Assembly (NCBI RefSeq): GCF_035084215.1
Contig: NC_090355.1
Coordinates: 21,824,001-21,888,000 of the forward strand
Direction: 5' to 3'
Length of the DNA: 64,000 bases
From: Heptranchias perlo
Lineage: Eukaryota
A model generated the notes under the pieces. It was not told the origin of the DNA. It did not search any database and was given only the letters and a program-made list of their open reading frames with translations. The first letter of the stretch is position 1. The number at the start of each line of letters is the position of its first letter. Below, one piece after another: positions 1 through 58,095 of the stretch. Made by a program: the position numbers and the translations under genes.

Positions 1-548
1 AGACCTAGACAACATCCAGGCTTGGGCTGATAAGTGGCAAGTAACATCCGTGCCAGACAAGGACCATCTCCAACAAGTGTCTAACCAGATCCCCTTGACA
101 CCATCCAGGACAAAGCAGCCCGCTTGATTGGCATCCCATCCACCACCCTAAACATTCACTCCCTTCACCACCGGCACACAGTGGCTGCAGTGTGTACCAT
201 CCACAGGATGCACTGCAGCAACTCTCCAAGGCTTCTTCGACAGCAGCTCCCAAACCCACGACCTCTACCATCTAGAAGGACAAGGGCAGCAGGCACATGG
301 GAACACCACCATCTGCACGTTCTCCAAGTCATACACCTTCCCGACTTGGAAATATGTCGCCGTTCCTTCATCGTTGCTGGGTCAATCCTGGAACTCCCTA
401 CCAAACAGCACTGTGGGAGAACCTTCACCACGTGGACTGCAGTAGTTCAAGAAGGCAGCTCACCACCACCTTCTCAAGGGCAATTAGGGATGGGCATAAA
501 TACTGGCCTTGCCAGCGATACCCACATCCCATGAACAAATTTTAAAAA
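1..548 (+). mobile_element. 3' fragment of the APE/RT LINE family seen at 23.1-26.4 kb, with an internal deletion
   Basis: Near-identical to 25612-25725 joined to 25980-26420; shares the GGCATAAATACTGGCCTTGCCAGCG...CCCATGAAC tail. Confidence 0.9.
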
Positions 549-1700: not shown

Positions 1701-3450
1701 TTTTAGTAAACTAAGCCTTAAATACACTGAAAAACTCACCAGCTACCAGCCAATCAGCTCCTTCCCCTGTTTATTTATATCTTGATCTTCAGGATCCAAA
1801 AATAATTATTTCCCTCATAAAAGTAGAAAAAATGAACTCTCCATTCTTTAAGTCTCTGGGATCATTCATCATTTCACAAAGGCTGCCAATGTAGTTCAGT
1901 CATTGGGCACTAAGTTGTACACAAAACTGACCATATTTGATTTACCTTGGAATTTTTGTGTTTCCATCGGGGACTACTTGGCCTCCAACTGATGGCACAG
2001 ATGACATCAGAAACTGATCTTGGAGAATCACAAACAAATTTGCACCTTACTTCAGTGTGGAGTGCAATTGTGGATCAAAATACTGTTCTAACATATTACC
2101 CACTGGTGTTTTCACAGTTCTCCACCCACAAGAATTTTACAGCAATAAAAAAAGGTAAAAATTGGCATTCAACTGAATGGCTCTAATGAGTTTATAAATC
2201 ATAAAACAGTAAAGTTTGATTAGTTTATGATCATCAATAGAACCCTAAAATTTAATTACTGCACTAACTAAACACCAGCAATTTGTTTTAAAACATAAAA
2301 CACATCATGTACCAGCAGTTCAACCTTCTCTACATTTTATTGAAAAAAAGTTAATGGAAACAAGTGTAGAGAGAATAATTGTTACCTGAAAGCAATTACA
2401 ATACAATAATGTAATCTGAGCTCATATTATAGACTGCAAAAAAGTGACATCATCTGAAACCAGAGGTTAGATTACTGCTCCAATCACACCCTGATGCCTG
2501 CAATTTCTTTTGCAGCATATGGAGTTTCATATTCATGGAGAGGTTTCATTCAGCTTTGGGACTAGTTTGTGCCAGCTGCAGATACTGACTCCAAGGGTCA
2601 GTATGTTGCAGTTCACTGATGCTTGATGACATTCACAGTACAGGTTTATTCAAGAAAAAAACCTGCAGATTAGTAAGATTTTATATTTAAGAGATACACA
2701 AAATATTGCTGCTGATGGAGAAAATAGAACCATGGTCTGGCCTGTGGCCAGGGCTTCGAACTGTATGGCGCCAGAAGATCACTACTTCAAGTTTAGAGAG
2801 TATAAAACTCCTTGAAGGATTGCGGTCACAGTATTCTCCCCAGATAGAAGATGGGACCATCTCAAGGTACAAGAACGGTAAGCAAATGAGAAATAATGGA
2901 TTGCGTCAATAGCACAGAAATCACAGCTTTGGAGCAGTGTGGTCTTGAAACATATTGTACTATCATTTCAGACTCAGCAGATCAAGGACAGCTAGTAGAA
3001 ACAAATCCGATCAGTTTTCTGGGCAAAATGTTACTTTTTCTTCTTTTAAAAAAAAGTCTAGGATATCTTATAAAGTGTCCATCTTGCAACATTTCACAGT
3101 ACATTTGGCAGAAGAGAGCAAAAACATAAAAACATATTTCCAAATGTTCTTTAAAGCAAAGCTCAAATTGCCTCCTTTTCCCCCAGAGCAAGTCGCACTT
3201 TAGGTTTATCAATATATGCTTACTAAACACATAGGAATGAGTAAAGGCAACAATTGGCCACCCAATTATAAATTTCTTAATGAAAATAACCAACTTTTTA
3301 CCTTCTGCTAACTTAGAAACCTGCCTAATTCCAAATTGAGTATTGCAAGTGGGTCAGCATTTACTGCATTGGTAGCAGTTTCATTGTTAACACTGCTGTT
3401 GCCACTGCAGTACCAGCACCATTTGGGGGGTGGTGTTTTAAAGAGTACGG

Positions 3451-5040
3451 TACCATAGTGGTTATGCTACTGGACTAGTAATCCAGAGGCCCAACACAGG
3501 ACTACATGCATGCATGCTCTGGACTGAGCTAAGTGATCCCACAATCAACGGATCAAATCAAAGCTCTGCAGTCCTGCCATATCAGTCACGAATAGTGGTG
3601 GACAATTAAACTACTAAAAGGGAGGAGGAGGCCCTGTGAACATCCTCAATGATGGCAGAGTCCAGTATGTGAATGCAAAAGAAAGGCTGAAGCATTTGCA
3701 ACCATCTTCAGTCAGAAGTGCCAAGTGGATGAGCCATCTCTGCCTCCTCCAGGGAGATCCCCATCACAGAAGCCAGTCTTCAATCAATTCGATTCACTCC
3801 ACATGATATCAAGAGACCGCTGAGTGCACTGGATACAGCAAAGGCTATGGGCCCCGACGACATCCTAGCTGAAGTCTTGTGCTCCAGAACTAGCCGCGCC
3901 TCTAGCCAAGCTGTTCCACAGCTACAACACTGGCATCTACCCGACAATGTGGAAAATTACCCAGGTATGTCCTGTCCACAAAATGCTGGACAAATCCAGT
4001 CTGGCCAATTACTGCCCCATCAGTCTAGTCTCAATCAGCAAAATGATGGAAGGCATCAGACAGTGCTACCAAGTGGCACTTGCTCACCAATGCTCAGTTT
4101 GGGTTCTGCCAGGATCATTCAGCTCCAGACCTCATTACAGCCTTGGTCCAAACATGGACAAAAGAGCTGAATTCCAGAGTTAAGGTGTGAGTGACTACCC
4201 TTGACATCAAGGCAGCATTTGACCGATTGTGGCACCAAGGAGCCCAAGTAAAATTTTAGTCAATGTAAATCAGGGGGAAAACTCTCCAGTGGCTGGAGTC
4301 ATACCTAGCACAAAGGAAGATGGTAGTGGTTGTTGGAAGCCAATCATCTCAGCAGGACATCGCAGCAGGAGTTCCTCAGGGCAGTGGCCGAGGCCCAACC
4401 ATCTTCAGCTGCTTCCTCAATGACCTTCCCCCCCCCCATAAAAGGTCAGAAGTGGGGATGTTCACTTATTGCACCGTGTTCAGTTCCATTCACAACCCCT
4501 CAGATAATGCAGTCCATCCCCACATGCAGCAAGACCTGGACAACATCCAGGCTTGGACTGATAAGGGGCAAGTAACATTCGTGCCAGACAATGACCATCT
4601 CCAACAAGAAAGAGTCTAACCACCTCCCCGAGACATTCAATGGCATTACCATCACCGAATCTCCCACCAGCAACATCCTGGGGGTCACCATTGACCAGAA
4701 ACTTAACTGGACCAGCCATATAAACATTGTGGCTACAAGAGCAGGTCAGAGGCTAGGTATTCTGCAGCGAGTGACTCACCTCCTGACTTCCCAAAGCCTT
4801 TCCACCATCTACAAGGCACAAGTCAGGAGTGTGATGGAATACTCTCCACTTGCCTGGATGAGTGCAGCTTCAGCAACACTCAAAGCTAGACACCATCCAA
4901 GACAAAGCAGCTTGTTTGATCCCTACCCAACAGAATTATGGGAACACCTTCACCACATGGACAACAGCAGTTCACGAAAGCAGCCTACCACCACCTTTGA
5001 GGGCAACGAGGGATAGGCAATAAATGCCAGCGACAGCCAT
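3451..5040 (+). mobile_element. Internally deleted copy of the tRNA-headed LINE (short head joined to RT and 3' tail)
   Basis: Head CATAGTGGTTATGCTACTGGACTAGTAATCCAGAGGCC joins sequence matching 24527 onward; RT motifs GVPQGS and YKAQVRSVMEY. Confidence 0.9.
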
Positions 5041-19270: not shown

Positions 19271-21740
19271 AGTTTCATCTTTTTCCTTTTGTGCCTCTTG
19301 CTTTTCAAAAGAAAAGCTTAGTCAAATCATGTAGCAGGAAACTACATTTAACAAGTTATCAGATTACTGCAGATAAATGTAATAGTGAACTCTCCAATCA
19401 CTCAAATCTACAAAATGATAATCCAGAAAAGTATAACCGCCCTAAACCCGCAATTAAAAATTAGCCAGGTTTCTTGCCCCGAATGTCACACAGCTAATGT
19501 TGGAATTGTTTGGGTGAGGACTGGAACAGACTCTGCTGTAATATGGTCCACAGTTTGATTATTTGAAGACAGACACTCACTTGTCATATGAATAACGGGT
19601 ACTTTGGTGTAGCACCAGACAATGGCTGCTGCTTATCGAGTGGCACGAAAGCCAATTGTAGCATTTTGCCAATGTCCCAAAATCACCTAAGTCAGCACAG
19701 ACCAGGAAACTTATTGGTCTGCATGACTCAAGGAGGAGGAGCCAGGCAATTACTTTCATTTTTAGTGTCACTTGCTTCTCAGAGAAAAGCTTAATCAAAT
19801 AGTTTACTCTTTCATGAACCCCAAAATGACATAAAAATGAAGCACATGCACTCTGCTTGGATGAGGTGGGGGAAAAGGAGGCTAATTTGTTATAAAAAAA
19901 ATACTTCTTGAAATAGCAGTAAAAACTCAGTAGCTGATCATTCTTCCCAACTACCTGCAGTTTAAAGAAATTCTAGAATTACTACAATTGCATTTCATGT
20001 GTTTTATACTAGCAGATTTTATCAACATTGCATAAGGATTTCTCCCCCTCCTTGCCATGACCTCTCAGGCATATCCTAAACTCTGGCAAAGTATATAGAT
20101 AGACAACTGCAGCACTGGCTTTTTGCCAACACTACAGTCTGTCAGGCCAAAGACTGAACCTCTTCCTGTTTGGCACCTTAGTATTTTGTCTGATCCAAGA
20201 TGGGTATCCCCAGATGGCAAGTAGCCAAAGTGCAAGTGTTAGTCAGTTAATTAGTTAGTTAGTCAGTCTGTAGCATGACATGTTAAGTTTGCCACCATGC
20301 TATATAGACAGCATTTGAGCTCAAATAATAATCTTATCCATGAGGAATATCTGTGCCTGCCAGTCACCACACACCAAGGTCCTGATCACAGCCCAATTGT
20401 CAATGGGAAGCCAGTAAAAGGATGCCAGGTGCTTCCACCAGGAAAAGAGATCAGGAGCAAAGAATAAAATTTACTTCCTTTTCAGGGAGCACGTAACTAC
20501 AGTAGTTGCGACAATTACCCAACTAGTCAGAAAAATTTGATTCTGAATTTTAAAATGTACACATTGCTGAAAACCATAGAACAGCACCAGACTTTTAGAA
20601 AGACTGGTTTCCTTGATTGCAAGATCAAAGTTCAGGAGTGAATATTTGAAGTTTTGCTTTTATTATTCATGGGAGACACACAGTTTCAAGTTTGAATTCC
20701 TGTGGAATCCTACCCGAGTTAAATGAACATTAACCACTTCTGAAAACGTGCAAGTTTCGTTCAACCTAAACAAGTAAACAAAGATAGCTGCTAAAAAACA
20801 CAACAATGAAAGCTACGAATGCTGATCAGAATATCTAGCCAGCCTGATCTATTTTAAATTTAGTAGATCGGAGATAATACTTAAAAATCTGTTCCAGTTA
20901 TAGTCATGTAGACAAACTCCAAAGCACCGGACAGCAACAATGTTCAAGGCTATTCAACCTTACAAGCAATAATGAAGTTAGGAAGAACAGATCATCCTTG
21001 GGGAAAAAAAAACAGTAAGCTTGATCAAAGTTAAGTTGTTAAAATTATGTACCTAGCATTTGTCTTCAAATAAGTGCAACATGTTGGTCCCAAGACAGCA
21101 CACCACAATAGCAAACTGCAGGACTGAGCCTGCAGTTTTTCATACAGCACGTTACCAATCTAAGCAACACAATTGTGGAGAAAGACAGAGCAAAAATAGG
21201 TAATGGAACGTGCTGGGGAGGCAAACGTTACATGGGGCTAGTGTCAGACTTGACACACCGAACAGCCTGTTTCAAAATTGTATTGGTAAAGGACAGACGG
21301 GTCTTCGCTGAACACGTTACCCACACCTTCAACCAGGGATGGCTCATTACCAAAACGTAAAAAAAAACGAGAAAGGGAAGCCTTTTTTAAAAAAAGGTAC
21401 AAGTTTCATCATCAACAAACCTTGAAAGACTGATGTGTGTACGCATAACTATTTCTTTCTCCAGTGTATTCAAAAAAAACTTACCAACTTTTGCATGAGA
21501 CCAAAACACTCACTTAACCATATTTTACACTTTACAGTGCCTACATCACAGCAACGGTTACATTGCTGGATCCATTGTTTTTAGAAGGAATCACCAGGAA
21601 ACAGTAAGCAACTGTTTATACTTCTTTTAAAAAATGCTCTGAACACATTGTTTTTTTCCCTGAATGATTTCAGCAGCCACATCATGTAGGCCTAACAGGA
21701 GACAAAATTCACATTTCCTTGAGCCTTGTTCCTGCGATAC

Positions 21741-22310
21741 ACAAAAATCTAAACTGCATCGAAACAACCTTAAAACAAGTCGGTCTCATTCTATTCATTA
21801 ACCTTGCTGAAATGGTACATACAAAATATTTAATTCTAATACCCTAATTGTAGTTGAAGCTGTTGCACAAAGAAATTTAACTCATCTTCACAAACACTAG
21901 CCTGGGGCCCACATGCAGGTAAAATTCCCACGAGACAACGGGCAGTTGAGAGATTGAAAGATGTGCCTCTTGCCTAAATGGTACAGGAATTAAGCAACAA
22001 AGATTTTTTGCAGTTTGGCTAATTTATTTACATAGAAAAATTAACACTTATTTAAAATTTTAAAGCTTTGGCTATCAACATTGATTTGCAGAATTCGACA
22101 GCACTTCGAAAAACAAAATAAAAAACTAGCCAAATAACATGGGCCCCAGGCTAGTGTTCGTGAAGGTGAATTAAATTTCTTTGTGCAACAGCGCCAACTA
22201 CAATTAGGTATTTTATATATACCATTTCAGTAAAGTTAAATTGAAGGTTAATGAGTAGAATGAGACCTACTTGTTTTAAGGTTGTGTTTTGATGCAGTTT
22301 GGGTTTTTTT
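21741..22310. repeat. Degenerate foldback (about 170-bp inverted arms, 21741-21914 and 22138-22310)
   Basis: For example TGTTGCACAAAGAAATTTAA and AACACTAGCCTGGGGCCC on the left are reverse complements of the right arm. Confidence 0.85.
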
Positions 22311-22719
22311 GGCTAATTATTAGCATTGCTTGGCTAATAGTTTCAAATCTATCACAGATGGACCAGAGGTAATCTTGTTGGTTCCACTGGAAAATTACTC
22401 ATTATGGAACTTGAGTGTTAAATCAGCAATGAGATGTCTGCATTGATAAGGGTTCCCATGCGTCAGCACGACTGACAAGACAACTTTGCTTCTCTGATTT
22501 AACAGTGTGATACAAGCTCAGTTATGCACACTTCAGTAACTGACACCATCTTTGTCATATGGTGCTCAGTCCTCAACTTCTAAGCTTGTACAGTAATGCA
22601 ATTTAGTGCTTGCTACAGCATTAGCATTTACTGTTGCTAAAATTACATTTTATAGAAATTTCTTTTTCACTGTGTTCATATCTGATTTTATAAATAAATT
22701 ATTTTCCTTTTATCCCCAC

Positions 22720-23070: not shown

Positions 23071-23143
23071 GGGAAAGAGACCAATGTTATATTACTGTCA
23101 CTTCAGTAAAATTGAAGGTTAATGAGTGGAATGAGACCTACTT

Positions 23144-26100
23144 GTAGCATAGTGGTTATGTTACTGGACTGGTAATCCAGAGGCCTGGACTAATAATCCG
23201 GAGTCATGAGTTCAAATCCCGCCACGGCAGCTGGCAAATTTAAATTCAATTAATTAAAAAATTCAATTAATTAAATAAAAATCTGGAATTAAAATACTAG
23301 TATCAGTAACGGTGGCCATGAAACTACCGGATTGTCGTAAAAACCCATCTGGTTCACTAATGTCCTTTAGGGAAGGAAACCTGCCATCCTTATCCGGTCT
23401 GGCCTATATTTGACTCCAGACTCACAGCAATGTGGTTGACTCTTAATTGCCCTCTGAAATGGCCTAGTAAGCCACTCAGTTGTAAAATCTCGCTAAAAAA
23501 AAAGTCAAGAATAAAACCGGACTGACCACCCGGCATCAGACCACTAGGCACCAGACACGACAAAGGCAAACCAAGCCCAGTCGACCCTGCAAAGTCCTCC
23601 TCACGAACATCTGGGGACTTGTGCCAAAATTGGGAGAGCTGTCCCACAGACTAGTCAAGCAACAGCCTGACATAGCCATACTCACAGAATCATACCTTTC
23701 AGCCAACATCCCAGACTCTTCCAACACCATTCTTGGATATGTCCTGTCCCACCGGCAGGACAGACCCACCAGAGGTGGCGGTACAGTGGTATACAGTCAG
23801 GAGGGAGTGGCCCTGGGAGTCCTCAACATTGACTCTGGACCCCATGAAATCTCATGACATCAGGTCAAACATGGGCAAGGAAACCTCCTGCTGATTACCA
23901 CCTACCGCCTTCCCTCAGCTGATGAATCAGTCCTCCTCCATGTTGAACACCGCTTGGAGGAAGCACTGAGGGTAGCAAGGGCACAGAATGTACTCTGGGT
24001 GGGGGACTTCAATGTCCATCACCAAGAGTGGCTCGGTAGCACCACTACTGACCGAGTCCTGAAGGACATAGCTGCCAGACTGGGCCTGCGGCAGGTGGTA
24101 AGCGAACCAACACGAGGGAAAAACTTACTTGACCTCATCCTCACCAATCTACCTATCGCAAATGCATCTGTCCATGACAGTATCGGTAGGAGTGACCACC
24201 GCACAGTACTCATGGAGATGAAATCCCGTCTTCGCACAGAGGACACCATCCAACGTGTTGTGTGGCACTACCACCGTGCTAAATGGGATAGATTCAGAAC
24301 CGATCTAGCAGCTCAAAACTGAGCATCCATGAGGTGCTGTGGGCAATCAGCAGCAGAATTGTATTCCAGCACAATCTGTAACCTCATGGTCCGGCATATT
24401 CCTCACTCTACCATTACCAACAAGCCAGGGGATCAACCCTGGTTCAATGAGGAGTGTAGAAGAGCATGCCAAGAGCAGCACCAAGCGTATCTACAAATGA
24501 GGTGCCAACCTGGTGAAGTTACAACTCAGGACTACATGCATGCTAAACAGCAGAAGCAACTTGCTATAGACAGAGCTAAGCGATTCCACAACCAACGGAT
24601 CAGATCAAAGCTCTGCAGTCCTGCCACATCCAGTCGTGAATGGTGATGGACAATAAAACAACTAACAGGAGGAGGAGGCTCTGTCAACATCCCCATCCTC
24701 AATGATGGAGGAGTTCAGCACGTGAGTGCAAAAGACAAGGCTGAAGCATTTGCAACCATCTTCAGCCGGAAGTGCCGAGTGGATGATCCATCTCGGCCTC
24801 CTACCCATATCCCCAGCATCACAGAAGACAGTCTTCAGCCAATTTGATTCACTCCACTCGATATCAAGAAACAGCTGAGTGCACTGGATACAGCAAAGGC
24901 TATGGGCCCCGACAACATCCCAGCTGTAGTGCTGAAGACTTGTGCTCCAGAACTAGCTGCGCCTCCAGCCAAGCTGTTCCAGTACATCTACAACACTGGC
25001 AGCTACCCGACAATGTGGAAAATTGTCCAGGTATGTCTTTTCCACAAAAAGCAGGACAAATCCAATCCGGCCAATTACCGCCCCATCAGTCTACTCTCAA
25101 TCATCAGCAAAGTGACGAAGGTGTCGTCGACAGTGCTATCAAGCGGAACTTACTCACCAATAACCTGCTCACCAATGCTCAGTTCGGGTTCCGCCAGATC
25201 TGATTACAGCCTTGGTCCAAACATGGACAAAAGAGCTGAATTCCAGAGGCGAGGTGAAGTGAGAGTGACTGCCCTTGACATCAAGGCAGCATTTGACCGA
25301 GTGTGGCACCAATAAGCCCTAGTAAAATTGAAGTCAATGGGAATCAGGGGGAAAACTCTCCAGTGGCTGGAGTCATACCTGGCACAAAGGAAGATGGTAG
25401 TGGTTGTTGGAGGCCAATCATCTCAGCCCCAGGGCATTGCTGCAGGAGTTCCTCAGGGCAGTGTCCTCGGCCCAACCACCTTCAGCTGCTTCATCAATGA
25501 CCTTCCCTCCATCATAAGGTCAGAAATGGGGGTGTTCGCTGATGATTGCACAGTGTTCAGTTCCATTCGCAACCCCTCCGATAATGAAGCAGTCCGAGCC
25601 CGCATGCAGCAAGACCTGGACAACATCCAGGCTTGGGCTCATAAGTGGCAAGTAACATTTGCGCCAGATAAGTGCCAGGCAATGACCATCTCTAACAACA
25701 GAGAGTCTAACCACCTCCCCTTGACATTCAACGGCATTACCATCGCCAAATCCCCCACCATCAACATCCTGGGGGTCACCAATGACCAGAAACTTAACTG
25801 GACCAACCACAAACACTGTGGCTGCAAGAGCAGGTCAGAGGCTGGGTATTCTGCGGCGGGTGACTCACCCCCTGACTCCCCATAGCCTTTCCACCACCGA
25901 CAAGGCACAAGTCAGGAGTGTGATGGAATACTCTCCACTTGCCTGGATGAGTGCAGCTCCAACAACACTCAAGAAGCTCGACACCATCCAGGACAAAGCA
26001 GCCCGCTTGATTGGCACCTCTTCCACCACCCTAAACATTCACTCCCTTCACCACCGGCACACAGTAGCTGCAGTGTGCACCATCCACAGGATGCACTGCA

Positions 26101-26428
26101 GCAACTCACCAAGGCTTCTTCGACAGCACCTCCCAAACCCGTGACCTCGACCACCTAGAAGGACAAGTGCAGCAGGCACATGGGAACAACACCACCTGCA
26201 CGTTCCCCTCCAAGTCACACACCAGCCCGACTTGGAAATATATCGCCGTTCCTTCATCGTCGCTGGGTCAAAATCCTGGAACTCCCTTCCTAACAGCACT
26301 GTGGGAAAACCTTCACCACACGGACTGCAGTGCTTCAAGGCGGCAGCTCACCACCACCTTCTCAAGGGCAATTAGAGATGGGCAATAAATACCGGGCTCG
26401 CCCAGATCCCATGAACGAATAAAAAAAA
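23144..26428 (+). mobile_element. Near full-length non-LTR retrotransposon (CR1/L2 group): tRNA-like head, single APE-endonuclease + RT frame disrupted by stops and frameshifts, A-rich tail
   Basis: ORF pieces: NIWGL..PDIAILTESYL, GDFNVH, LDLILTN, SDH (APE); NYRPISLLS, DIKAAFD, GVPQGSVLGP, FADD (RT); ends GAATAAAAAAAA. Confidence 0.93.
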
Positions 26429-54511: not shown

Positions 54512-54846
54512 AATTCATTCTCGGGATGTAAGCATCATTGGCAAAGCTGGTATTTATTACCCTATTGACACAACGGAGTGGGTTGCTAGGTCACTACATA
54601 TGGCAGTTAAGTGTCAACCACGTTGATGTGGAACTGAAGTTACATATAGGCCAGGCAGGCTAAGGATAGCATGATTCCCACCCCAAGGGGCATCAGTTGG
54701 ATTATTACAATAAAAAACAGCTTCACAGTCACAGATTTTTTCCCCCCCCCCCCCGAATTCAGAATTCATATTCTCAAACCACCATGTTCTCCGGATTATT
54801 AGTCCAGACATCTGCATTACTAGTCCAGTAATATAACTGACACGCA
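54512..54846 (-). mobile_element. SINE-like derivative composed of the head/5'UTR and the 3' tail of the 23.1-26.4 kb LINE
   Basis: Reverse complement: TTACTGGACTAGTAATGCAG..CTGGACTAATAATCCGGAG head, 5'UTR block ending CTAGCAACCCACTC, then CAATAGGGTAATAAATACCAGC...CATCCCGAGAATGAAT tail. Confidence 0.75.
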
Positions 54847-56089: not shown

Positions 56090-58095
56090 AACCTGATGAA
56101 TTCTTTGAGGAAGTGACTGGTATGCTGGTATCCTATTTATATGTTATACACCTTAATTTCCTCCTAAAATTTAGATTGTTCTTCAATTAAGTAACAGGGA
56201 GGATGATGAAAGTAGTGCAGATGATGCTGTGTATACAGACTTTCAAAAGGCGTTTGAGAAAGTGCCACATAATAGAGACCTGTTAGCAAAATCGAAGCCC
56301 ATGGGATTAAAGGGACAGTCGTATCATAGATACAAAATTGGCAAAGAGACAGAAAGCGGAGAGTAGTGGTGAACAGTTGGTCATCACACAGGAGAGAAAT
56401 AAACAGTGGTGTCCCCAGGAGTCGGTATTAAGATCACAGCCCTTTTTGATATATATTAATGAGCTGGACTTGGGTATAGGAGGCATAACTTCAAAGTTTG
56501 CAGATAACACAAAAAACTTGGAAATGCAGCTAACAGTGAGAGGGATAGCAGCAGACTTCAAGAGGACATAGACCGGTGAAATGGTGTGTGACTTGGAGGA
56601 GAACGTGCGGGTGGCGTTGTTCCCATGTGCCTGTTGCTCTCGTCCTTCTCGGTGGTAGAGGCCGCAAGTTTGGGAGGTGCTGTCGAAGAAGCCTTGGCGA
56701 GTTGCTGCAGTGCATCCTGTGAATGGTACACACTGCAGCCACTGTGTGCCGGTGGTGAAGGGAGTGAATGTTTAGGGTGGTGGATGGGGTGCCAATCAAG
56801 TGGGCTGTTTTGTCTTGGATGGTGTCGAGCTGCACTCATCCAGGCAAGTGGAGAGCATTCCATCACACTCCCAACTTGTGCCTTGTAGATGGTGGAAAGC
56901 TTTGGAGAGTCAGGAGGTGAGTCACTCGCAGCAGAATACCCAACCTCTGACCTGCTCTTGGAGCCACAGTATTTATATGGATGGTCGAGTTAAGTTTCTG
57001 GTCAATGGTGACCCCCAGGATGTTGACGGGGGATTCGGCGATGGTAATGCCGTTGAATGTCAAGGGGAGGTGGTTAGACACTCTCTTGTTGGAGATGGTC
57101 TTTGTCTGGCGCGAATGTTACTTGCCACTTATGAGCCCAAGCCTGGATGTTGTCCAGGTCTTGCTGTATGCGGGCACGGAGTGCTTCATTATCTGAGGGG
57201 TTGCGAATGGAACTGAACACTGTGCAATCATCAGCGAACATCCCCATTTCTGACCTTATGATGGAGGGAAGGTCATTGATGAAGCAGCTGAAGATGATTG
57301 GGCCTAGGACACTGCCTTGAGGGACTCCTGCAGCAATGCCCTGGGGCTGAGATGATTGGCCTCCAACTACCACTACCATCTTCCTTTGTGCTAGGTATGA
57401 CTCCAGCCACTGGAGAGTTTTCCCCCCCCGATTCCCATTGACTTCAATTTTACTAGGGCTCCTTGGTGCCACAATCGGTCAAATGCTGGCTTGATGTCAA
57501 TCATCTAATCCAGAGAAGTATGAAATGATTAATTTTGGAAGGAAGAATGAGAAGAAGCAATATAAACTAAATGGCACAATTTTAAAGAGGTTGTTGGAAG
57601 AGAGAGACCTGGGAGTTCACATACATATATCTTAGATGGTGGCAGGACGTTGATAGAAAAGCACATGGGATCCTTGGCTTTATAAATAGAGGCATAGGGT
57701 ACAAAAACAAGGAAGTTCTGCTAAACTTTTATAAATCACTGGTTCAGCCTCAGCAAGAGTATTGTGTCCAATTCTGTGTACCACAGTTTAGGAAGGATGT
57801 CAAGGTCTTGGAGAGGGTGCAGAGGAGATTAACTCGAATGGTACCAAGGACGAGGGACTTCAGTTATGTGGATAGACTGGAGAAGCAAAAGAAGGTTATG
57901 GGGAGATTTAATAGAGGTTCAAATTCTGACGGGTTTTGATATAGGAAGAAACTGTTCCCACTAGCAGGAGGGTCAGTAACCAGAGAATACAGATTTAAGA
58001 TAATTGGCAAACGAACCAGGGCAGGGGGAAAGAGATGAGGAGACATTTTTTTTTAAAACGTAGTGAGTTGTGACCTATAACATACTACCTAAAAG
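56090..58095 (+). mobile_element. CR1 LINE RT and 3' region in PPP6C intron 1, interrupted by an antisense LINE fragment
   Basis: DFQKAFEKVPH, PQES, SKFADNTK motifs; resumes after 57500. Confidence 0.88.
56581..57500 (-). mobile_element. Internal RT fragment of the tRNA-headed LINE family nested in CR1
   Basis: ORF 57074..57472 is nearly identical to ORF 25328..25885 (GVPQGSVLGP, FADD). Confidence 0.92.

Follow-up and report, generated by a model that had tools for sequence, protein, structure and literature searches.

An elasmobranch Zenon LINE with an integral tRNA-type head, probable Pol III transcription, and proposed AUG-less translation

The window, i.e., the whole 64,000-nucleotide stretch of Heptranchias perlo DNA that was analyzed, contains at positions 23144-26428 a dead copy, truncated by 7 nt, of a 3.34-kb single-ORF APE-RT LINE. 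The copy comprises the following features.

23144..23231, + strand: tRNA-derived head, lacking in this copy the 7 nt with which the family begins
23145-23155, + strand: A-box TAGCATAGTGG, in the head
23164-23180, + strand: anticodon arm, in the head
23185-23201, + strand: 21-nt tandem duplicate of the anticodon arm
23208-23219, + strand: B-box, in the head
23232..23322, + strand: AT-rich spacer, varying in length among subfamilies (80% identity between old and young subfamilies, with 24 gap columns)
23323..23485, + strand: conserved noncoding leader core (92% identity between old and young subfamilies, gap-free; 94% for the APE coding sequence)
23430..23432, + strand: ATG of a 76-codon overlapping upstream frame of the young subfamily, not in the APE frame; no Pfam match
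23454..23479, + strand: hairpin with an anticodon-type 7-nt loop (CU-AGC-AA in the family; AGU in this copy)
23483-23485, + strand: in-frame TAA closing the leader core
23486..23592, + strand: AUG-less Arg/Lys-rich N-terminal linker in the APE frame, with net indels that are mostly multiples of 3
23492..23494, + strand: conserved APE-frame GCT codon whose sequence is complementary to the AGC of the loop; candidate start region
23593..26375, + strand: single APE-RT ORF, broken in this copy
about 23600-24200 and about 25040-25780, + strand: APE and RT, respectively, within the broken ORF
26376..26428, + strand: short 3' UTR: AATAAA at 26384-26389, predicted stem-loop, A-tail at 26421-26428

The A-box, both arms, and the B-box were all found again where the first-pass annotation had placed them, and Pfam detected pieces of APE and RT downstream of the leader, in the order and without the ORF1 that had been described. 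The 5' end, originally set at 23144, had to be moved: the family starts 7 nt farther upstream, and these nucleotides are missing in the window copy. Compared with an intact copy, the ORF has six in-frame stops and a frameshift near position 25811. One TTTT occurs in the copy, at 25038. The 41 nt just 5' of the element (23105-23145) repeat, at 95% identity, a stretch 870 nt away (22234-22274). That stretch belongs to an arm of an inverted repeat with imperfect arms (21740-21911 and 22140-22311, 77%); positions 21775-21805 were also grouped with this repeat. The repeated 41 nt may represent a templated 5' junction or else a MITE-like element.

By its match to published sequences, the family is the elasmobranch Zenon (CR1 group) of Stuart et al. 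2026 (PMC13343379), where it is described as ORF1-less, A-tailed, and not deposited in a repeat repository. Inspection by eye of the first 400 nt showed that seven of seven shark and ray Zenon rows from that source start with the same head, leader, and linker, and a motif match was obtained in SquAca_Zenon-3; the three hagfish and coelacanth rows have no such start. The leader core is, by eye, near-identical in five published species. The Zenon elements of CarCar, HypSab, RhiTyp, ScyCan, and SquAca share the single APE-RT ORF, the lack of ORF1, the A-tail, and a length of ~3.3 kb, with no structural difference from the family studied here. The text of PMC13343379 mentions neither tRNA nor pol III, polymerase III, a promoter, or a start codon, and tRNA is likewise not mentioned in its supplement. 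The family has been known since 2026, but that source describes neither its head nor its T-run deficit nor the missing AUG. In the open-access literature searched, no paper among the matches listed describes a Pol III-driven coding LINE or this head.

Beyond the elasmobranchs, the closest full-length non-shark proteins were 45 to 49% identical in RT, were encoded mostly on contigs of 3 to 4 kb, and, where named, included those of crustaceans. No tRNA head was found among the metagenomic relatives that have upstream sequence, few of which are close relatives. CR1-like shark fragments matched the family at only ~20 to 41%, and a PDB search returned L1 and R2 RTs only. Shark gene models carry family fragments at 79 to 94% identity; the translated LINE fragments in models P0002, P0012, P0019, P0020, and P0021 are probably annotation errors or cases of exonisation.

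Four further pieces of the family lie in the window.

1..548, + strand: 3' fragment (80-88% identity)
3450..5028, + strand: head joined to mid-ORF by an internal deletion, plus 3' remnants
54520..54837, - strand: old noncoding derivative consisting of head, leader, and 3' tail
56582..57500, - strand: 5'-truncated RT fragment (89% identity)

The head had initially been reported on family members at 3451 and 54.8 kb. It is present on both, but both are deletion derivatives rather than full LINEs. In the copy at 3451, the first ~49 nt of the element are fused to mid-ORF, with about 1.36 kb deleted, and the copy at 54.5 to 54.84 kb is SINE-like and not a LINE because it holds no coding sequence.

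The tRNA-type head is integral to the LINE. A survey of the host genome (3.25 Gb) revealed thousands of copies of the 3.34-kb family; exact matches to the head (3,877) and to the linker (5,776) are motif counts and not copy numbers. The junction between leader and APE was seamless in 40 of 40 scored loci, with no SINE tail between leader and ORF, and 26 of the best 30 head-plus-leader loci ran on into APE, the other 4 jumping to the 3' tail. For an unbiased test of the 5' end, 29 loci were chosen with an APE-only query. The head (its first 15 nt) was reached in 20 of them, 6 were cut within the leader, and 3 were cut within the ORF; none contained an ORF1, and, save for one duplicated locus, no other 5' end was shared among them. 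The ORF is preceded by 352 nt, and the sole frame overlapping it is the one of 76 codons. The family 5' end is sharp and falls at tRNA position 1. Both flanks were located inside another repeat in 11 of 36 full-length copies. Because the flanks rejoined within 27 nt in all 11 of these testable copies, the element from head to A-tail is one insertion.

These results support the first-pass view of the head as an integral part of an autonomous LINE (i.e., a SINE-LINE hybrid); the opposing case, in which full-length copies would have a different 5' end or an ORF1 and the head would be an adjacent independent SINE, did not hold. The vanishingly improbable reading that the head is an independent SINE lying by chance upstream of a 5'-truncated LINE, which could draw on the abundance of a head-leader-tail element in the host genome and on the lack of a target-site duplication framing the window copy, is already refuted by the recurrence of the same seamless junction and the many linker matches, by the absence of an intervening SINE tail, and by the flanks that rejoin around the whole unit. 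The first-pass annotation had also suggested testing what fraction of full-length copies begin with the head inside shared target-site duplications. Such duplications are not a family feature: tight ones were no commoner than in mismatched pairs (35 copies), and long ones with extra bases were seen by eye at loci L090 and L104. In several full-length copies (L282, L283, L293, L297, L299, and L304), the start is immediately preceded by a few extra bases that duplicate a portion of it.

The full-length set was assembled after 25 of 60 fetched stretches that did not give one full-length alignment were dropped, and 3 of 30 old-subfamily loci were likewise removed (L170, L176, and L185; young copy or rearranged). 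Full-length copies are 95 to 99% identical to their majority, and 6 of the 36 keep 965 to 982 open codons. The intact ORF of 973 codons matches PF03372/PF14529 (APE) and PF00078 (RT). The older subfamily, for the most part 75 to 83% identical, is organized in the same way; its heads carry either one arm or two. Contigs of three other organisms cover head, leader, and APE, and none among the pieces listed spans the whole stretch.

Sequence comparison marks the head as tRNA-Gln-like and tRNA-Gln-derived. Single-arm heads of older copies aligned with genomic tRNA-Gln at 44 of 70 to 49 of 69 bases, exceeding all 500 shuffles. In the window copy, the Rfam tRNA model gave a weak match to 23143-23224 (20.3 bits; E value, 0.13; below the gathering threshold), and ARAGORN called no tRNA gene in the head. 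The A-box is kept in 31 and the B-box in 33 of the 36 full-length copies, and both boxes persist in the two subfamilies and in the five published species. The duplicated arm widens the spacing between the boxes in 35 of 36 young copies, which counts against transcription by Pol III. Dozens of tRNA-Gln-type arms occur in tandem at ~3.1-kb spacing elsewhere (G000:C38:2.5-8.9 Mb), in a large tRNA array.

A scan of the sense strand for T4+ terminators, suggested together with the original annotation, came out as predicted. TTTT is absent from 26 of the 36 full-length copies. Three intact copies have no T4 against about 4.4 expected (P = 0.004 to 0.015) and 7 to 9 T3 against about 22 expected; with codon usage fixed, the T3 deficit is still significant (P up to 0.005), and that of T4 alone is not (P = 0.07 to 0.10). 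Pooled coding fragments showed 10 T4 versus 140 expected in the young subfamily (n = 128) and 11 versus 75 in the old one (n = 103), counts that are not independent because the copies descend from few masters. Control LINEs from the same loci (73 fragments of <50% protein identity, mostly CR1-like) had 128 T4 versus 95 expected, and metagenomic LINE relatives had 1,022 versus 813 (n = 76, one of them without any T4, after 4 of 80 loci under 900 nt were left out). Runs of four or more A, C, or G occur at 0.72 to 1.12 of expectation. Phe makes up 2.1% of residues in the family versus a mean of 3.4% in 85 relatives. Among the fragments below 50% identity, a still older relative (4 fragments, 2.7 kb) has 5 TTT runs versus 24 expected. 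The CR1-like LINE fragment family seen at window positions 56200-56500 and at L152-L162, which served as a T-run control, is not T4-poor on its sense strand.

This coding LINE has a tRNA-type promoter, shuns T4 runs, and lacks a normal start codon, and on these grounds it is likely to be a Pol III unit. We consider it probable that the elasmobranch Zenon family is transcribed by Pol III and translated without an AUG. The missing ORF1 is not diagnostic of Pol III because it is common to all Zenon; like the A-tail, it is a general Zenon trait that is also seen in lineages with no reported tRNA head. Pol III-made retroelement RNAs can retrotranspose in cells with ORF2 alone, with no ORF1 needed (PMC2666806).

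An unlikely alternative is that the head is the captured 5' end of a tRNA-SINE that now serves Pol II, or that copies are transcribed by host read-through, with the T deficit left over from an earlier Pol III phase or imposed by some other constraint. LINEs are regarded as Pol II units, including by Kojima 2018 for autonomous LINEs (PMC5786205), and the AATAAA ~40 nt upstream of the A-tail counts against Pol III, but Pol III SINEs with AATAAA are known (PMC8466645). RNA-labelled run contigs (X6, X8, X17, and X19) cover the element. In RNA-labelled contigs, head copies appear with upstream flank attached and with a steep rise toward the 3' end, the pattern that passive poly(A) transcripts are expected to give; the runs may contain DNA, and contigs cannot show start, strand, or polymerase. 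Against Pol II or read-through stand the common 5' end at tRNA position 1, the persistence of both boxes across subfamilies and species, and the specificity of the deficit for T and for the family studied here. A capped RNA, moreover, would still meet 8 to 9 upstream ATGs and no in-frame AUG.

The APE-RT frame opens after the in-frame TAA, which is kept in 32 of 36 young copies. Its first in-frame Met lies at residue 247 to 250, past the endonuclease, in six of six intact copies; on average, the first 260 residues of relatives contain 3.6 further Met. The lack of an in-frame AUG ahead of the endonuclease domain had not been remarked on in the first-pass annotation. The first 300 nt hold eight ATGs, which speaks against simple 5' scanning. 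ATG density 3' of the start is not lower (10 in nt 360-1100 versus 32 in the remaining 2.2 kb), and for this reason only the lack of an in-frame Met stands. The Arg-rich linker has the look of coding sequence, its net indels being divisible by 3 in 33 of 36 young copies and in 22 of 27 old ones, numbers that reflect a few master events. Three codons past the stop, a GCT is retained by 28 of 36 copies of the young subfamily and by 18 of 27 of the old. By eye, this GCT was seen in each of the five published species; in four of them it is in the APE frame, and in SquAca-1 it is 1 nt off. The hairpin whose loop reads CU-AGC-AA ends 12 nt before this codon, and 32 of 36 young copies retain its AGC. 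In a post hoc test, pairing of this anticodon with a codon was equalled in any frame by 1.9% of 5,000 shuffles of the 81-nt region, and the element contains four hairpins of the anticodon type, three of which lie within 25 nt of a complementary codon. By eye, old copies have G-C as the outermost stem pair of the AGC hairpin and the HypSab row has A-U, and in young copies these two bases do not pair. In nested folding, the leader core did no better than shuffles (z = -0.3); the fold of nt 1-365 (z = -3.3) is dominated by pairings of the head and the AT-rich spacer.

A decidedly improbable alternative places the start at the leader ATG (23430) and has ribosomes, on a Pol III or Pol II transcript, shift by -1 into the APE frame in an A-rich stretch. 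This ATG is present in the young family and, by eye, in seven of seven published shark and ray rows, its 76-codon frame is open over the APE start in both subfamilies, and an A-rich stretch follows. Only 10 of 27 old copies have the ATG, however, most others having ACG or ACA, and inspection by eye showed no canonical slippery heptamer, a frame that is 1 nt out of register in the RhiTyp row and stops early in the HypSab row, and linker substitutions that mostly preserve the APE-frame residue. The lack of a Pfam match to the 76-codon frame also speaks against this start.

Our proposal remains Pol III transcription followed by AUG-less initiation. TFIIIC would bind the internal A and B boxes, so that every full-length copy would bring its own promoter, and the loss of T4 would let Pol III traverse the whole element to make one 3.3-kb RNA. 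Ribosomes would enter this uncapped RNA internally through the conserved leader, either on the GCU codon or just past it, possibly aided by the anticodon-mimic hairpin, which is the weakest step of the scheme. The APE-RT protein would then use the 3' stem-loop and A-tail to prime target-primed reverse transcription, and internal deletions would yield SINE-like head-leader-tail passengers. R2 retrotransposons and dicistrovirus intergenic IRESs likewise have uncapped or internally initiated RNA with no conserved AUG. R2 RNA is released by a ribozyme from a Pol I transcript, and the dicistrovirus IRES mimics an anticodon paired to its codon beside the first codon, downstream of a ribosome-binding core of nested pseudoknots. 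The candidate likeness to this IRES comprises the hairpin-codon pairing and the absent AUG; the multi-pseudoknot core is a trait of the viral element. The complete scheme, in which shark and ray Zenon is a Pol III LINE driven by its own tRNA-Gln promoter, its uncapped RNA is translated via the tRNA-mimic hairpin and GCU as a cellular counterpart of the dicistrovirus IRES, and SINEs arise by deletion, is possible, and we put it forward tentatively.

The head-leader-tail elements differ in the lengths of their linker and 3' end, among both old (L127, L129, and L136) and young (L034, L037, L040, and L044) examples; the SINE-like derivatives therefore arose by repeated deletion. Many joints of this type were also seen in RNA and DNA contigs. 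In one copy (L068:437-776, oriented), head and leader are inverted relative to the body, resembling a twin-priming 5' inversion. The lepidopteran Zenon is likewise a ~3.3-kb single-ORF, A-tailed element that spawns short 5'-plus-3' deletion elements such as Persaeus (PMC6740152). Persaeus keeps the Zenon 5' UTR, but, in contrast to the shark head, neither homology to tRNA nor a Pol III promoter is reported for it in that source.

Like tRNA-derived SINEs (SINE2), including the shark DeuSINE SacSINE1, the shark family combines a tRNA head containing A and B boxes with a conserved body and a LINE-type 3' tail. Unlike in SINE2, the shark head precedes a 973-codon ORF, in a coding element of 3.34 kb whose frame is open in 6 of 36 copies. 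The element thus has the boxed tRNA head and the absence of internal T4 that characterize SINE2, and it is short and noncoding only in its deletion derivatives. The idea that the leader is the Deu domain of SacSINE1 (PMC5499810) was rejected by eye against EbuSINE2 Deu and SacSINE1 nt 2-78 (PMC5786205 supplement), neither of which resembles the head or leader studied here. Motif searches of four other supplements and of full text likewise gave no informative match. Bov-tA and WALLSI2 also have a small-RNA head joined to 5' and 3' parts of a LINE (Kojima 2018, PMC5786205). There, the head was added to a noncoding deletion product, whereas in shark Zenon the coding element itself bears it.

The accepted divide assigns Pol II to coding LINEs and Pol III to short noncoding SINEs, and Pol III transcripts are as a rule non-protein-coding (PMC2666806). 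If the proposal is true, sharks and rays have retained a coding Pol III unit of 3.3 kb, contrary to both rules, and this unit would provide a natural model for the translation of uncapped RNA. It would also open a direct route from LINE to SINE, with the family shedding head-leader-tail elements by deletion. In these, the conserved leader would become the SINE body, the origin of which was left open by Kojima 2018, who reported no LINE sequence resembling conserved SINE bodies (PMC5786205). The intact young copies make the proposals on Pol III and on translation testable.
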